Shown here in pieces: positions 2,817-51,221 of a stretch of 64,000 bases of DNA. The notes beneath the pieces are model-generated. The model ran no database searches, was not told the DNA's origin, and saw nothing but the letters and a program-made list of their open reading frames with translations. Numbering within the stretch: position 1 is the first letter of the stretch; the number at the start of each line of letters is the position of its first letter. The DNA comes from a virus: positions 38,269-102,268 of the IMG/VR virus record IMGVR_UViG_3300020203_000013; one strand, 5' to 3'. The translations under genes were made by a program, and so were the position numbers.

Positions 2817-5132
2817 TTACTCGCCTTGTGATTCAATAGTTTTAGTTACTAAATCTACTTCCGCAAATCCTCTAATTACTGTTACTTCGTTAGTTCCCCT
2901 GAAAGCAAATGTCTGAGTAGCGTTTCCTTCTAGAGGTGTATTTGTATTTTCTTCAGTAATTCTGAGATTATTACAAACAACAGTCTTTATTGGGTACTCT
3001 CTTAAAGAACCATCAGTAACGTCATATATACGTTTAATTCCGTTAACATAGTATTCATCACCAAACATATCTGGAGATAGAACTTTTCTGTCTAGCCCCG
3101 AACCACCAGCTTCCTGGTCAGTTTGTTGGTAAATCATAACTACTGCTGTAAGATTACTCTTAGCAAATAAGTCAACAATAGCAATGTCTGTTAATGTTCC
3201 AGACTTGTATTTATTAAGCTTTCCTGCAAAAGTGGCATACTGCTCTAAGTCACTTGCTGTAGCGTCCAAACTTACTGTAAACTTGATAGGCAAAGTCAAA
3301 GGTCTAGCGTAGTTGTTTAATCTACCTAGCTCTTTTAAAGGCTCTCTAGTTAGGCTTGAAGTAATAGTAGCTGTTTGAAGTCTTAATGCAGCCTCATAAT
3401 CCCCAATTAGGATTGTTGAGTTTACAGTAGGAGATGTATTTACTAATACCGCACTTCCGTCATCAATTGCTCCAGAAGCCGTAGTAGACAGATCGATTCT
3501 TCGACTAACTTCAGAGACTCCAGATATTGTAGTATTGAATGCGTTTCCTGATACCAATACTGTAATTGCTGATCCTACGTAGTCAGCGTCAACTCCGCAC
3601 AAGCTATTAACAAATGCTCCTGATGCTGTAGAAACTGCTGAACTAGATTCCCCTAGTCTTAGGTTCGGCCAAACCGAGCCTCCTAAGGTGATACTTCCAT
3701 TATTAAAGTTACCTGAAAGACTATTGCTTGCGCCGATAATCTCTCTAGATGGTCCATTTTTACCTGGGCCGTCTACAACTCTAACTTTTAATCCTACGAA
3801 TCTACCTAGATCTACTTTACTTTCAACGGTATTGTTAAAAGTAATACTTGCTCCACTGATTGCAGCGCCAGTTAGTACAGACTTAAGGAGTAAATCTGGA
3901 TCTACTAAGTAGACTTCAATTTGTCCTTGTCTTACTGAACCGACATCTTCTACGTCATCAGATGAGATTGGGGCAAAATATTTAGCTGAGACATAGCTAG
4001 AGTCTGCACCGCCTGGTCTCCCTGCTTCTCCAACTTCAACGGCATAACCGTTGGCAGCATAGAAAGCAAAAACTTTATCGCTGTTTTGAAAACTAGATCT
4101 TCCTGCTGGAAGAACGTTAGATAAAGCTGAGTTTGTACCATTTGAGTAAAAGGCTAAGGTATTTACACTAGAATCGTACAAAAAGTATTCAGTTACGTTT
4201 GTTGGAATACAATCATTTAAATCAAATACAGGAATGGCTTTACTTTCTCCAATGGCTAATCCACCAGTGGCAGAAAAGGTAAGGAGAACTGAAGGTCTAC
4301 CTGCTAGATCTTTCTTTAAAAATCCTAAAGTTTTATTGTCTAACTTAGGTACAGCCAAAGGAGATGCAAGAGACATCTTTAAAAATGTTTTTGCTCCTAA
4401 AGTAGCTGCTAGTATTTCTCCAGCTGCTGAGTTAGCTCCAACTCTCCACTCTTCCCACGAAAGGAATCTTGCAGAGTTAAGTAACCACTGTTTTTGCTCG
4501 GACTCAGCTGCATAGTCTTCGTTAGCCATGTCTGAGGTAGAGTAAGTTAGTGTAAGGTTGTTAACAAATACGTCTTTTAGAAGTTTAGTGAATTCAATAC
4601 TATCATTGGCAGAACCTAAAGAACATTCAGATTGAATAGGACTCCAGATATCTACACCTTTAGAGATTCCGCACTCTCTACCAAAATCTGGTAGTGCTAC
4701 TCCGTGAAGGTATGCTAAGGCAGTTCCACCAGGAGAGTCTTTAATGACGATGTTTGCTTTACCTGTGCCAGATGCAGCAGGTAATCCAGAAAAAGCGGTG
4801 GCATTTAAGTCACCCTCACTGGTATCTCCAAATCCACCAACAGTACCATTAAAGGTAACTCCATCAGATTGTCTGATGTTGTGATTAAGATTTTGAGTTG
4901 GCACTTTTGCTAAAGTCGCCATTGTATAAATTGATCCGTAATCGTGCCCTTCCAAAGTTATTGCAACTTCTGGAGAGTCATCAACGATGTCTGTTAGATT
5001 GAGGTCTCCTAACTGAAACACGTCCTCAGTATTAAAGGTTGTTGAACTTCCAAGAGTTCTAATTCTGTAAAGAATTCTACCTTCTGCTTGTACGGACTGA
5101 GAAGCATAAATAATCCTAGTTCTTCTTGCCAT
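2817..5132 (-). CDS. Major tail (tube) protein
   Basis: 771 aa, AGGAG SD, followed by a terminator, Ser/Gly/Thr-rich beta composition, located between tail completion and chaperone genes, two copies of a tube-like R-x-x-T...E-x-x-x-LG motif. Confidence 0.65.
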   Translation of the reverse strand: MARRTRIIYASQSVQAEGRILYRIRTLGSSTTFNTEDVFQLGDLNLTDIVDDSPEVAITLEGHDYGSIYTMATLAKVPTQNLNHNIRQSDGVTFNGTVGGFGDTSEGDLNATAFSGLPAASGTGKANIVIKDSPGGTALAYLHGVALPDFGRECGISKGVDIWSPIQSECSLGSANDSIEFTKLLKDVFVNNLTLTYSTSDMANEDYAAESEQKQWLLNSARFLSWEEWRVGANSAAGEILAATLGAKTFLKMSLASPLAVPKLDNKTLGFLKKDLAGRPSVLLTFSATGGLAIGESKAIPVFDLNDCIPTNVTEYFLYDSSVNTLAFYSNGTNSALSNVLPAGRSSFQNSDKVFAFYAANGYAVEVGEAGRPGGADSSYVSAKYFAPISSDDVEDVGSVRQGQIEVYLVDPDLLLKSVLTGAAISGASITFNNTVESKVDLGRFVGLKVRVVDGPGKNGPSREIIGASNSLSGNFNNGSITLGGSVWPNLRLGESSSAVSTASGAFVNSLCGVDADYVGSAITVLVSGNAFNTTISGVSEVSRRIDLSTTASGAIDDGSAVLVNTSPTVNSTILIGDYEAALRLQTATITSSLTREPLKELGRLNNYARPLTLPIKFTVSLDATASDLEQYATFAGKLNKYKSGTLTDIAIVDLFAKSNLTAVVMIYQQTDQEAGGSGLDRKVLSPDMFGDEYYVNGIKRIYDVTDGSLREYPIKTVVCNNLRITEENTNTPLEGNATQTFAFRGTNEVTVIRGFAEVDLVTKTIESQGE

Positions 5133-13345: not shown

Positions 13346-13831
13346 TTATAGTGCCAACTTGATAACTAGATTCTCGCCTGCTGCTGCTTGTGCCGCACTC
13401 AAAGAATTTTGAGCAATGGCGCAAACTTTAGGTACTCCACCTTCAAGAGCGCCTGAAGCAGATACGTTAGTAAGTCTGCCTTGAGTTGCACTTGCATAAA
13501 GTGGGGCACCGGCTGCTAGCGAACCTGATACCAAATAGTGTGTTGTTTCAAAAATTCCACCGGATTGGAAACATAAAACTGGGTCACCTACGTGAGCGTC
13601 AGAGTTTCCGATCTCTCCTGGAAATTGAAAGTTTTGTGGAAGACCTGCGGCTTGTGCCTTAACTCTCTGAGCAAGTAGAGCATAAGGTGCTCCACCTGAG
13701 ATGCTAGTAATAGCAGCTAATTTATTTTCTCCTGAAAGTCTTACGATAGCACCTGCCTCGGCAGTTCCACTGTTCTCGTCATGACGACAGAGAGCATTTT
13801 CTTGTACGATGTGTCTTGGGGTTAAAGCCAT
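13346..13831 (-). CDS. Capsid decoration/cement protein
   Basis: 161 aa Ala/Gly-rich, GIFETT...AGAPLYAS..GRLT motif, between scaffold and MCP. Confidence 0.7.
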   Translation of the reverse strand: MALTPRHIVQENALCRHDENSGTAEAGAIVRLSGENKLAAITSISGGAPYALLAQRVKAQAAGLPQNFQFPGEIGNSDAHVGDPVLCFQSGGIFETTHYLVSGSLAAGAPLYASATQGRLTNVSASGALEGGVPKVCAIAQNSLSAAQAAAGENLVIKLAL

Positions 13832-39932: not shown

Positions 39933-40975
39933 TATAGGCTCTCCAAAAACTCTTTCCAATCCGACCGAACTTTATCCTTAGAGAACTCTTTCAAGACTAA
40001 CTCCCTGCCATTCTTGGATATATACTCAGCCAATTGCCTATTGTTTAACAGTTCTTTTAGAATTGAATTCAGTTCTCCTAGGTTATCTGAGAAAAATGCA
40101 TGTACCCCGTTTGTAATTAAGTCGGAAGGTTCGTAGGTTCCATCCCACTTACTGCCTCTCCAGTTGCCCAGATCTGGGCCCCAAGTAACTGTAGGTGTTC
40201 CTGTAAGCATGGCCTCTAGCATGTTATAAGTCAAGGATGCTGGTTTAGAGCCTAAGGCGAAGTATGCCTTAGCCTTCCTGTACGCCAGCCTCTGATCTTC
40301 CCAGGAAAGATGTCCTATGACCTCAGGATGCCCATCAGAGGTACCGCCATATGTCTTATGGGGAATGTCGGAAACTACCTGTAGATACTGAGGGGTATTA
40401 CTGATAAAGGATCGGCGGGCGAAAAAGTTATTAAAGGTTAACACGTAGTTATCTGTACCTTCCCAACCAAAGTAATCCTTTTCATTTACAAAGGGCCTGA
40501 TAACTCTAGTCATAGGTAAAGATCCTAGAATATTCTGCTCTTTAGGGGAACCTCTGACAACTTTAAGTCCTTGAGATATTAAAGGGGCCATAGCCACCTC
40601 TATCTCAGGCTGTTGTTGGGTATAAGTATGCCATATTACCGGCTTATGTTTAATTGCATCCCAGTTAGCTAATACCCCATAAGGCCAAGGACAACAGTGA
40701 CTTACTAGAACAATATCAAACTGATCTACTAGTTCTTTTGATACAATAGATGCCCCATGTATTTGCTTATTGGGACAGGACTTTCTAAATGAATCGATCC
40801 ACTCTTGATTGGCTGTCTTATTAATTGACTGTCTATATAATCCATCTGCTGGAATTGGATTTTGTGGGTCTAGGAAATGGCCAGTCGAAAACCAGTCATA
40901 TCCTAGCTCTGTAAAAAGAGTCATCAAGTCGAACTCCATAATTATGTGGTCGGAGCTAATGTGTAAAATCTTCAT
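39932..40975 (-). CDS. GT-B (GT4-like) glycosyltransferase
   Basis: NMLEAMLTGTPTV, ITNGVHAF, ISKNGRELVLKEFS. Confidence 0.8.
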   Translation of the reverse strand: MKILHISSDHIIMEFDLMTLFTELGYDWFSTGHFLDPQNPIPADGLYRQSINKTANQEWIDSFRKSCPNKQIHGASIVSKELVDQFDIVLVSHCCPWPYGVLANWDAIKHKPVIWHTYTQQQPEIEVAMAPLISQGLKVVRGSPKEQNILGSLPMTRVIRPFVNEKDYFGWEGTDNYVLTFNNFFARRSFISNTPQYLQVVSDIPHKTYGGTSDGHPEVIGHLSWEDQRLAYRKAKAYFALGSKPASLTYNMLEAMLTGTPTVTWGPDLGNWRGSKWDGTYEPSDLITNGVHAFFSDNLGELNSILKELLNNRQLAEYISKNGRELVLKEFSKDKVRSDWKEFLESL

Positions 40976-49619: not shown

Positions 49620-50024
49620 TTAGGCTGGAGTTAAAGCTTCTTGTACGCTAGCTTCCTGACTATTATCTCTCGTGGACTCTGAGTTTTGGTCGCTTTTGTT
49701 TTTTGATAGAGCTTGAACTGTTGAAGCTTTAATTTCAAAAGCTTTAACCTTAGTACCATCTTTAAGATTGTACTCTCTAGCTTGAAGTTTTCCTTCTACC
49801 AGTACTTCTCTTCCTTTCTTAAGGTACTTAAGAGCAAATTCGGCATTACTACCAAAACATACTACATCAAACCACTCAGTTACTTTTTCTACTTTACCGT
49901 TGAAGTTGGTAGTTTCATGGGTAGCGATACTAAAGGCGGCGATTGAACTCTGCGCGTCTTCTTTAGAAATCTTTACTGGATCTTTTCCTAGATTACCAAC
50001 AATAATTACTTTATTAAAACTCAT
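49620..50024 (-). CDS. ssb: Single-stranded DNA-binding protein
   Basis: NKVIIVGNLGKDP, TEWFDVVCFG, YLKKG.EVLVEGKL; AAGGA SD; lacks the DDDIPF tail. Confidence 0.92.
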   Translation of the reverse strand: MSFNKVIIVGNLGKDPVKISKEDAQSSIAAFSIATHETTNFNGKVEKVTEWFDVVCFGSNAEFALKYLKKGREVLVEGKLQAREYNLKDGTKVKAFEIKASTVQALSKNKSDQNSESTRDNSQEASVQEALTPA

Positions 50025-50081
50025 ATTATTTTTCCTTACTAAATTACACAAAATATTGTTACAGATCAGATCCTACAGTAT

Positions 50082-50411
50082 TTACTTTTGTGAGTCAAGA
50101 ACAGGGGACTTAAATAAAGAATATAAGATTTGATTACCTTGTATAGGTAATACTACAACCTTATCATAATTAATGTCGTGAATTTTAAAATGTAGGTCTC
50201 TACCTATAGAGCACAAGAATCTAATTTTTTTAACACCGTGAGGGGACTGTAGCTCTCTCACTGTAAGTTTGTCATTAAATTTAAGGTGTTGGATTTCTAA
50301 ATTATCCAGCTCCAGATTCTTAATAGACTTATAGTTAATTTTTAACCTTATTACCAAATGGAGGAGGTAATCTAGAGAACGCAACGCTATTGATGGTCTT
50401 TCGTACAACAT
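50082..50411 (-). CDS. Hypothetical protein (possibly a distant array-family member)
   Basis: 109-aa ORF; TATAAT 7 nt upstream of ATG. Confidence 0.5.
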   Translation of the reverse strand: MLYERPSIALRSLDYLLHLVIRLKINYKSIKNLELDNLEIQHLKFNDKLTVRELQSPHGVKKIRFLCSIGRDLHFKIHDINYDKVVVLPIQGNQILYSLFKSPVLDSQK

Positions 50412-50534
50412 TTTATATATTATATATGATCTTTTAGATCTATCAACTAATGAGTTAACTAATTAATAGTTTAAAAAAGTTTAATAACCATCTAATATTA
50501 CTAAATCTCTTAAAGTGTTATAGTTTAGATTGGA

Positions 50535-50970
50535 TAGAGGGCGAGTTCTTCCCTTTTTACAGGGAAAAATAGAAAAAGTTTGAGTTATCAATCAGTTTTT
50601 GCAAAATACAACCTTGGATTTTCATCTAGGTTCTCGACGGGGTTATCCTGTCGCCGTTTTATGTAAGATATTCACGGGTACAACTTTATTCCCTACCTTG
50701 CAGTCAGAGGGAGTTGACAGGAGTGGTTACCTGTTCCTTCGGCCTATGGAGTACTAACCTAAAGCACTCTGTAAATTAATCTTGCACTGTCTAAAGCAAC
50801 AAGAAATTAATCATTTTTATACAGCCAACCTTTGGCTGTGATCTTTCTTCCCCTCACCCTTTCAAAACCTGGAAACAGGCAAACAGGACTAGCTCTATAT
50901 TAGCAGGAAGAGTTATGGTCATGTCCTGATATTTAGATCAGAACATCTTAGGTCTGCCAGCAAGTTATCA
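50535..50970. other. Highly structured non-coding element (candidate ncRNA or replication origin)
   Basis: About 10 near-contiguous inverted repeats, GC-richer than flanks, no ORF of 60 aa or more, adjacent to an AT-rich stretch at 50412-50520. Confidence 0.6.
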
Positions 50971-50987
50971 TTAAAGTATAACAGGAG

Positions 50988-51221
50988 TCAAGTGACTATC
51001 TCGTATGAGGACCAAGTTTTATTATATTCTGAGATCTTTAGTATTAAAAGTTCGTCCCCAGTTCCACTTAAAAGTTCTATAACATCAGTATTAAAGTTAA
51101 TAAAGTCAGAAGTAAAAGAGTCAGATAAATCAGAAAGGTCTAAATCAGGATCTCCTTTATTTATAATAATAAAAGGATGGCCCTTAATTATAAAGTCTGG
51201 AAGGGTTTTATTTTTCAACAT
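50988..51221 (-). CDS. Array-family small protein
   Basis: C-term ISEYNKTWSS. Confidence 0.6.
   Translation of the reverse strand: MLKNKTLPDFIIKGHPFIIINKGDPDLDLSDLSDSFTSDFINFNTDVIELLSGTGDELLILKISEYNKTWSSYEIVT

Follow-up and report, generated by a model that had tools for sequence, protein, structure and literature searches.

Phage T4 gene 32 encodes a single-stranded-DNA-binding protein and has an autoregulatory leader that combines a structured element with an A/U-rich unstructured tract. ColE1 RNA II and RNA I form a primer-antisense system that works in the context of RNase H and Pol I. Phage ncRNAs of ~400-600 nt, such as GOLLD, ROOL and similar families, are represented in Rfam. In the Lactococcus Ceduovirus c2, the origin lacks ORFs and an RBS, is flanked by the early promoters PE1 and PE2, which have the same orientation, and sits between the divergent early and late modules (PMC7150918). 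Its non-coding transcript PE1-T is needed for the initiation of replication, and the c2-type ori types are without sequence similarity to one another (PMC7150918).

The locus described here is a non-coding gap upstream of an ssb gene in an uncultured phage. A sequence-only reading had proposed that its core holds a large structured ncRNA or a replication origin formed of hairpins. Like the Ceduovirus c2 origin, the gap extends over several hundred nt free of ORFs and of an RBS, is bounded by two same-direction promoter-like sites, heads a set of genes whose promoters are host-type (sigma70-like) and is lineage-specific; unlike that origin, with which it shares no sequence similarity, it has only an extended -10 as its upstream promoter and lies in a co-directional block. 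The resemblance to ColE1 RNA II / RNA I, a ~0.5-kb untranslated transcript (putative in this phage, as are its multiple hairpins) beside a potential target site, and possibly a short convergent antisense RNA, is an analogy of layout only, the gap having neither homology to that system nor an RNase H / Pol I context. GOLLD, ROOL and similar RNAs share with the gap their length range, the phage location and the multi-stem prediction, but the gap has no match to such a covariance model at E<=10, no adjacent tRNA genes and no conserved relatives, and its thermodynamic signal is weak. As in the T4 gene 32 leader, a predicted structured element is followed by an A/U-rich tract upstream of a gene for an ssDNA-binding protein; in this phage, however, a promoter and a 109-aa ORF separate the structures from ssb, and no pseudoknot was identified. 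The minus-strand hairpin at 50839-50821 matches the first stem-loop of the Rfam family Chlorobi-RRM (RF01697) almost base for base, but it scores 19.9 bits (E 0.22; gathering threshold 45), lacks the second stem and has no RRM-protein gene downstream.

Genome and gene neighbourhood

The window, i.e. the whole stretch of DNA that was analysed, comprises the final 64 kb of a viral record of 102 kb from IMG/VR. The completeness of the record is ~36% (CheckV), and the phage is therefore, on this estimate, jumbo-sized. Identical copies of the record are found in microbial-mat and freshwater metagenomes. In four DNA runs the contigs of the region are fragmented but identical to the record, with zero variants. 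The terminase protein TerL shows at most 28% identity to that of any cultured phage; its best relatives in IMG/VR are 47-60% identical, and the record at 60% (G001) is the nearest relative that was compared. Judged from sequence comparison, the lineage is deep-branching and almost unsampled.

The genes around the gap all lie on the minus strand, so that both flanks are co-directional. Their order on that strand is small-ORF array, 77-aa ORF, gap, 109-aa ORF, ssb, 136-aa ORF and sugar-modification cluster. The 77-aa ORF (50988-51221, minus strand; codon-usage z 4.3) is the last gene of the upstream array, and no canonical terminator was found after it, or after the array as a whole, on the minus strand. 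On the other side of the gap lies an orphan ORF of 109 aa (50082-50411, minus strand), which is not preceded by a Shine-Dalgarno motif and is a candidate for the leaderless first gene of an orf109-ssb unit. It has zero relatives among 5.8 billion proteins, a metagenome (JGI) scan with it yielded nothing usable, and its predicted structure is poor (pLDDT 0.37, Atlas). The codon-usage signal of this ORF (z 3.2) is below that of its neighbours, especially in its 5' half. An IS remnant, considered on the basis of the protein-atlas neighbours of the same ORF, was rejected, the similarity being within the chance range.

The ssb gene (49620-50051, minus strand; Pfam SSB, 9e-26) lies 360 nt downstream of the gap. 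Its longest ORF comprises 143 aa with a TTG start; the public gene call comprises 134 aa and begins at an internal ATG, placed at about 50024. The shorter form is favoured because the nearest ssb relatives all begin MSFN. These relatives are 65-71% identical and are all located on Logan contigs, as is the nearest relative of the 243-aa ORF (62% identical). No tRNA or tmRNA genes were detected with ARAGORN.

Extent and coding content of the gap

ORF-free stretches were defined by the absence of any ORF of at least 60 aa. By this measure the gap (50412-50987) has a length of 576 nt and is the longest in the 102-kb record, followed by one of 192 nt; within the window it is the only one of at least 200 nt. 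The earlier statement that it is the longest ORF-free gap is thus borne out record-wide. Its reported location between ssb and a paralog array requires a correction: the gap is real, but the 109-aa ORF separates it from ssb.

Stop-to-stop frames within the gap reach a maximum of 57 codons, and its ten stop-to-stop peptides match zero Pfam families at E<=10. The core of the gap (50535-50970, 436 nt) carries no codon-usage signal (z 0.5, as compared with 3.2, 4.3 and 8.0 for the neighbouring ORFs of 109, 77 and 243 aa, respectively). The gap is genuinely non-coding. The G+C content of the core is 40.4%, a coding-like value, vs 29.1% pooled over the other intergenic DNA of the record. The predicted fold of the core is modest and is better on the minus strand.

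Searches for relatives and known RNA families

A scan of the whole 64-kb window with Rfam 15, the check suggested together with the sequence-only reading, gave zero matches at the gathering threshold. At E<=10, the best sub-threshold matches in the region scored 14-20 bits (E 0.22-6.6), which is chance level. No similarity to GenBank phages was found with blastn. Scans of IMG/VR with the 109-aa ORF, a 93-aa ORF, ssb and an ssb alignment gave nothing usable, and a scan of viral contigs with a 22-base motif pattern gave nothing. A single IMG/VR hit (L002) was discarded as spurious, as it lies antisense inside an 1130-aa ORF.

Searches of the four TerL-related records with blastn, tblastx and nhmmer revealed no homologue of the gap, and single-sequence covariance models of an 81-nt Y-shaped domain and of the three-hairpin middle part matched only their own source across the five records. 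No second copy of the region exists in the record (tblastn, blastn). A paralog or pseudogene remnant was rejected, given that there is no similarity to the rest of the record and no Pfam match at E<=10, and a DGR template repeat was rejected in the absence of any match longer than 16 nt elsewhere in the record.

In G001, ssb is preceded by ~550 nt with two small, unrelated ORFs and a similar leaderless-type promoter. This stretch (L018, 5249-5798) is about as long as the gap, and its two ORFs, of ~66 aa on the minus and 75 aa on the plus strand, are convergent. The small genes neighbouring the position are not detectably homologous. The position upstream of ssb looks like a fast-evolving, variable hot spot in this phage group.

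Hairpins and folding statistics

Every inverted repeat of the sequence-only reading was located where it had been reported, and AGTTATCA was found near both ends, at 50583 and 50963. The description of the region as tiled with stem-loops is too strong: hairpins exist, but they barely go beyond chance, whether judged by fold z or by stem counts against shuffles. The proposed equivalence of the two strands does not hold either, as the minus-strand RNA folds 11.5 kcal/mol better than the plus-strand RNA at equal shuffle means.

Fold z values compare the MFE with that of dinucleotide shuffles. For the originally proposed core, 50535-50970, the value is -1.8 on the minus and -1.2 on the plus strand, which is not clearly better than shuffles, and the ensemble diversity is ordinary (z -0.9 vs shuffles). 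The stretch 50520-50975 gives -2.5 (minus) and -1.2 (plus), the whole gap 50412-50987 gives -2.9 (minus) and -1.3 (plus), and a 348-nt domain, the boundaries of which were picked from the fold itself, gives -3.19 on the minus strand. The minus-strand z therefore ranges from -1.8 to -3.2 depending on the boundaries chosen. The background, determined on 320 minus-strand windows of 200 nt from the 64-kb window, is -0.38 +/- 1.24, and nine of these windows (about 3%) score -2.9 or below. The three 200-nt windows of the gap itself score -2.9, -0.45 and -1.7, the central one being that with -0.45, and 100-nt windows over the core mostly fall between -2.3 and +1. Folds computed with DNA parameters are unremarkable (z -1.7 and -2.3).

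The strongest minus-strand fold z values of the window, -4.4 and -5.3, belong to 2601-2800 and 3801-4000, in and beside a 771-aa ORF and directly upstream of a 579-aa HNH homing-endonuclease gene (1003-2742). These two peaks may represent a structured element or an intron-like feature; no match to them was found in Rfam.

Counts of stems lead to a similar picture. Watson-Crick stems of at least 5 bp number 12 vs 7.4 +/- 2.6 in shuffles (P 0.07), and neither longer perfect Watson-Crick stems nor 9-mer inverted repeats are enriched over shuffles. When G-U pairs are admitted, the minus strand has 59 stems of at least 5 bp vs 42 (P 0.007) and 12 stems of at least 7 bp vs 6 (P 0.03). Several minus-strand helices use G-U pairs, which correspond to A-C mismatches on the plus strand. 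The core hairpins are close to the chance expectation for the base composition and are largely incidental; hand-listed hairpins of 5-10 bp in DNA of 36-40% G+C are by themselves no evidence of a structured RNA.

The predicted elements are as follows. On the minus strand, an 81-nt Y-shaped domain at 50878-50958 is predicted with pair probabilities of 0.66-0.97 (z -2.1) and includes a 10-bp hairpin (50946-50921) with a minus-strand G-U pair that turns into a mismatched A-C on the opposite strand. The 348-nt domain mentioned above (50522-50869, minus strand) is predicted as a closed multibranch domain, in which purine-rich 50859-50851 pairs with pyrimidine-rich 50541-50532. A perfect 8-bp hairpin with a 3-nt loop at 50821-50839 was called terminator-like on the plus strand, and a sequence scan also found a terminator-like hairpin followed by a T-run at 50635-50653 (plus strand); two terminator-like sites vs 1.0 +/- 1.2 in shuffles are no enrichment. 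An 18-bp AU-rich hairpin with four G-U pairs, located at 50470-50514 within the AT-rich tract, is predicted on the minus strand only, where the window 50420-50519 has a fold z of -2.3 (+1.5 on the plus strand). The purine-rich core segment 50849-50867 contains a 9-nt perfect complement to 50228-50246 inside the 109-aa ORF; this was treated as chance, several such complements being expected in 1.7 kb by estimate.

Predicted promoter of the 109-aa ORF and edge motifs

The AT-rich tract reported at 50412-50520 is present; among all 100-nt windows of the 102-kb record, 50413-50512 within it has the lowest G+C content (17%). Promoter calls were made as consensus matches (sigma70-type). A promoter of this type, TTGATA-16 nt-TATAAT, lies on the minus strand at 50446-50419, with the -35 at 50446-50441 and the -10 at 50424-50419, and agrees with the consensus at 11 of 12 positions. 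Only six matches of this quality or better occur in the record (204 kb on both strands), this one included. The promoter ends 7 nt before the ATG at 50411, which is itself without a Shine-Dalgarno motif. Its -35 hexamer is abutted by an 18-bp near-perfect, operator-like palindrome (50448-50465), which is unique in the window.

The arrangement of promoter, 6 to 8 nt and ATG recurs at 40975 and 49188, and is also found before the ssb of G001. Near-consensus -10 hexamers located 6-8 nt before ATGs without a Shine-Dalgarno motif head several transcription units (40975, 49188 and 50411). SD-like motifs were found for 45 of the 132 ORFs of at least 90 aa. The recurrent promoter-to-ATG layout suggests leaderless mRNAs. 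Accordingly read, 50412-50530 would consist of a promoter and an operator that fire a leaderless orf109-ssb mRNA. Promoter and operator would account for the AT-rich tract, with no need for an origin to explain it.

The extended -10 motif TGTTATACT that had been reported on the minus strand exists, at 50983-50975, one base off the position first given. It marks the 5' edge of the core, with the stop of the 77-aa ORF 5 nt before it, and is the only intergenic one among the 19 such extended -10 motifs of the record. No usable -35 accompanies it, and no SD-like motif or ORF follows it. An inverted copy, TGTTATAGT, lies on the plus strand at 50516-50524, i.e. at the opposite edge of the core and facing inward; the sites at 50516 and 50983 form a 12-nt inverted repeat with 11 of 12 matches. 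The pattern TGTTATA[CG]TTT, chosen post hoc, occurs in four copies in the record vs 0.5 expected from shuffles. The other copies are located at record positions ~13550 (plus strand) and ~26717 (minus strand). The copy at 13550 shares 16 nt plus TTGCTG with that at 50983 and is antisense inside a 634-aa ORF; owing to this location the 16-nt repeat was set aside as a curiosity.

Origin-type features

GC skew, including the cumulative curve, shows no switch or inflection at the locus. Iterons were not found in the region, where the repeats are 8-10-nt sequences in two copies each and no array of at least three exists, and neither were DnaA boxes with up to one mismatch. Direct 9-mers are mildly enriched (20 vs 12.3 +/- 4.6). 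The stretch 50413-50512 would pass as an AT-rich unwinding element, a composition that its promoter explains equally well. When compared with the c2-type origin, the gap likewise is a stretch without ORF or RBS. Of the two co-directional promoters, the downstream one is the 11/12 match, and the upstream one is represented only by TGTTATACT without a -35. Divergent early and late modules are not found at the gap, both flanks being on the minus strand.

Interpretation

A large structured ncRNA or a hairpin origin, as first proposed, is a possible but unsupported reading, in view of the fold z of -1.8 and the absence of a skew switch, iterons and DnaA boxes. The gap is interpreted here, tentatively and somewhat short of even confidence, as the boundary between transcription units, consisting of a promoter and a lineage-specific non-coding spacer. 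Boundary and control region in one, it would lie between two transcription units that run co-directionally on the minus strand. The near-consensus promoter would start a leaderless mRNA at or next to the ATG at 50411, for the 109-aa ORF and ssb, with the operator-like palindrome beside its -35. The 436-nt core would be a lineage-specific non-coding spacer and a member of no described RNA family. Minus-strand transcription of this core is probable; it would come either from the extended -10 at 50983-50975 or from polymerases reading through out of the upstream array. Several observations argue against a mere spacer. A functionless spacer of 436 nt is odd where the other intergenic gaps do not exceed 192 nt, and its 40.4% G+C vs 29.1% in the other intergenic DNA is equally out of line. 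The minus-strand bias amounts to 11.5 kcal/mol, with z -2.9 for the whole gap and -3.2 for the 348-nt domain, and minus-strand G-U hairpins are enriched (P 0.007-0.03). The core is framed by a pair of extended -10 motifs that face inward, and no intrinsic terminator of the upstream array was found on the minus strand. Against the promoter part it can be said that all of its calls are consensus matches.

Some of these observations could be accommodated by a stand-alone, lineage-specific structured ncRNA of ~430-550 nt on the minus strand, started from the extended -10 at 50983-50975, with the Y-shaped domain at its 5' end followed by the closed multibranch domain, and acting in trans or as a scaffold in early infection. 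Such an RNA is possible although unlikely. It would explain why the minus strand reaches z -2.5 to -3.2 where the plus strand stays at -1.2, why the plus-strand counterparts of its G-U pairs are A-C mismatches, why the core without coding signal has a G+C content well above that of other intergenic DNA, and why the only intergenic extended -10 motif of the record stands at its 5' edge. The z value, however, depends on the boundaries and drops to -1.8 for 50535-50970, where the ensemble diversity is ordinary; a value like -2.9 is reached by about 3% of the ordinary 200-nt windows of the window; the central 200 nt are at about -0.45; and the minus strand lacks a terminator, Rfam a match and the four related records a homologue. 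A transcribed non-coding element would be consistent with the core G+C content, the minus-strand fold bias and the promoter-like motifs at the two edges. A rather unlikely proposal is that the core, ~50520-50970, encodes an undescribed lineage-specific RNA of ~450 nt from the extended -10, possibly opposed by a ~130-nt antisense RNA, and that this RNA would be a trans-acting ncRNA or a primer or activator transcript of an origin beside ssb. The antisense RNA on its own, which would run on the plus strand from TGTTATAGT (50516-50524) as far as the hairpin called terminator-like at 50635-50653, could pair with the convergent minus-strand transcript in the manner of ColE1 RNA I/RNA II or of a type I antitoxin. 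The order and spacing of extended -10, hairpin and T-run are correct on the plus strand, and TGTTATA[CG]TTT is over-represented (4 vs 0.5 expected), but the motif was defined post hoc, the fold z is -1.3, terminator-like sites are not enriched (2 vs 1.0 +/- 1.2) and no plus-strand promoter reached the threshold of the -35/-10 scan. This RNA is highly improbable.

A c2-like transcription-activated origin, placed beside the most easily melted AT-rich DNA and ssb, would by analogy draw together the non-coding character of the gap, the lack of an RBS after the first promoter and the two flanking promoter-like sites (PMC7150918), and also the 100-nt stretch of lowest G+C content in the record and the ssb gene 360 nt downstream. 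The lack of homologues would be expected, the ori types being mutually unrelated (PMC7150918). This origin is nevertheless improbable. For the upstream promoter there is no more than an extended -10 match; iterons, DnaA boxes and a GC-skew inflection are absent; the flanking genes share one direction, unlike the divergent modules on either side of the c2 origin; GenBank phages show no similarity; folds computed with DNA parameters do not stand out (z -1.7 / -2.3); and in a record of ~36% of the genome, better candidates may lie elsewhere. Still less probable is dead DNA, left over from a lost gene or a small mobile element (MITE or IS fragment) and no longer functional. The coding-like G+C content would suit such a remnant, as would the 12-nt terminal inverted repeat (11/12) at 50516 and 50983, the variable position in G001 and the short transposase-fragment clusters that are the language-model neighbours of the 109-aa ORF. 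Those neighbours, however, share 114-150 of 256 features in the Atlas scores, within the chance range stated for the tool, and chance alone would, by estimate, give about one single-mismatch inverted repeat of 12 nt here. No frame retains a coding signal or similarity to a protein, and there is neither a second copy in the record nor a target-site duplication in the flanks.

On the boundary reading, the more solid, if modest, result is the placement of a strong, host-type promoter for a leaderless mRNA, which helps to annotate the transcription units of the phage. The leaderless layout also hints at the translation habits of the host. If a functional RNA or an RNA-dependent origin were to prove true, a non-coding element would be added to a jumbo-phage lineage without cultured relatives, and it would offer a way into the start of replication or early regulation in such phages.
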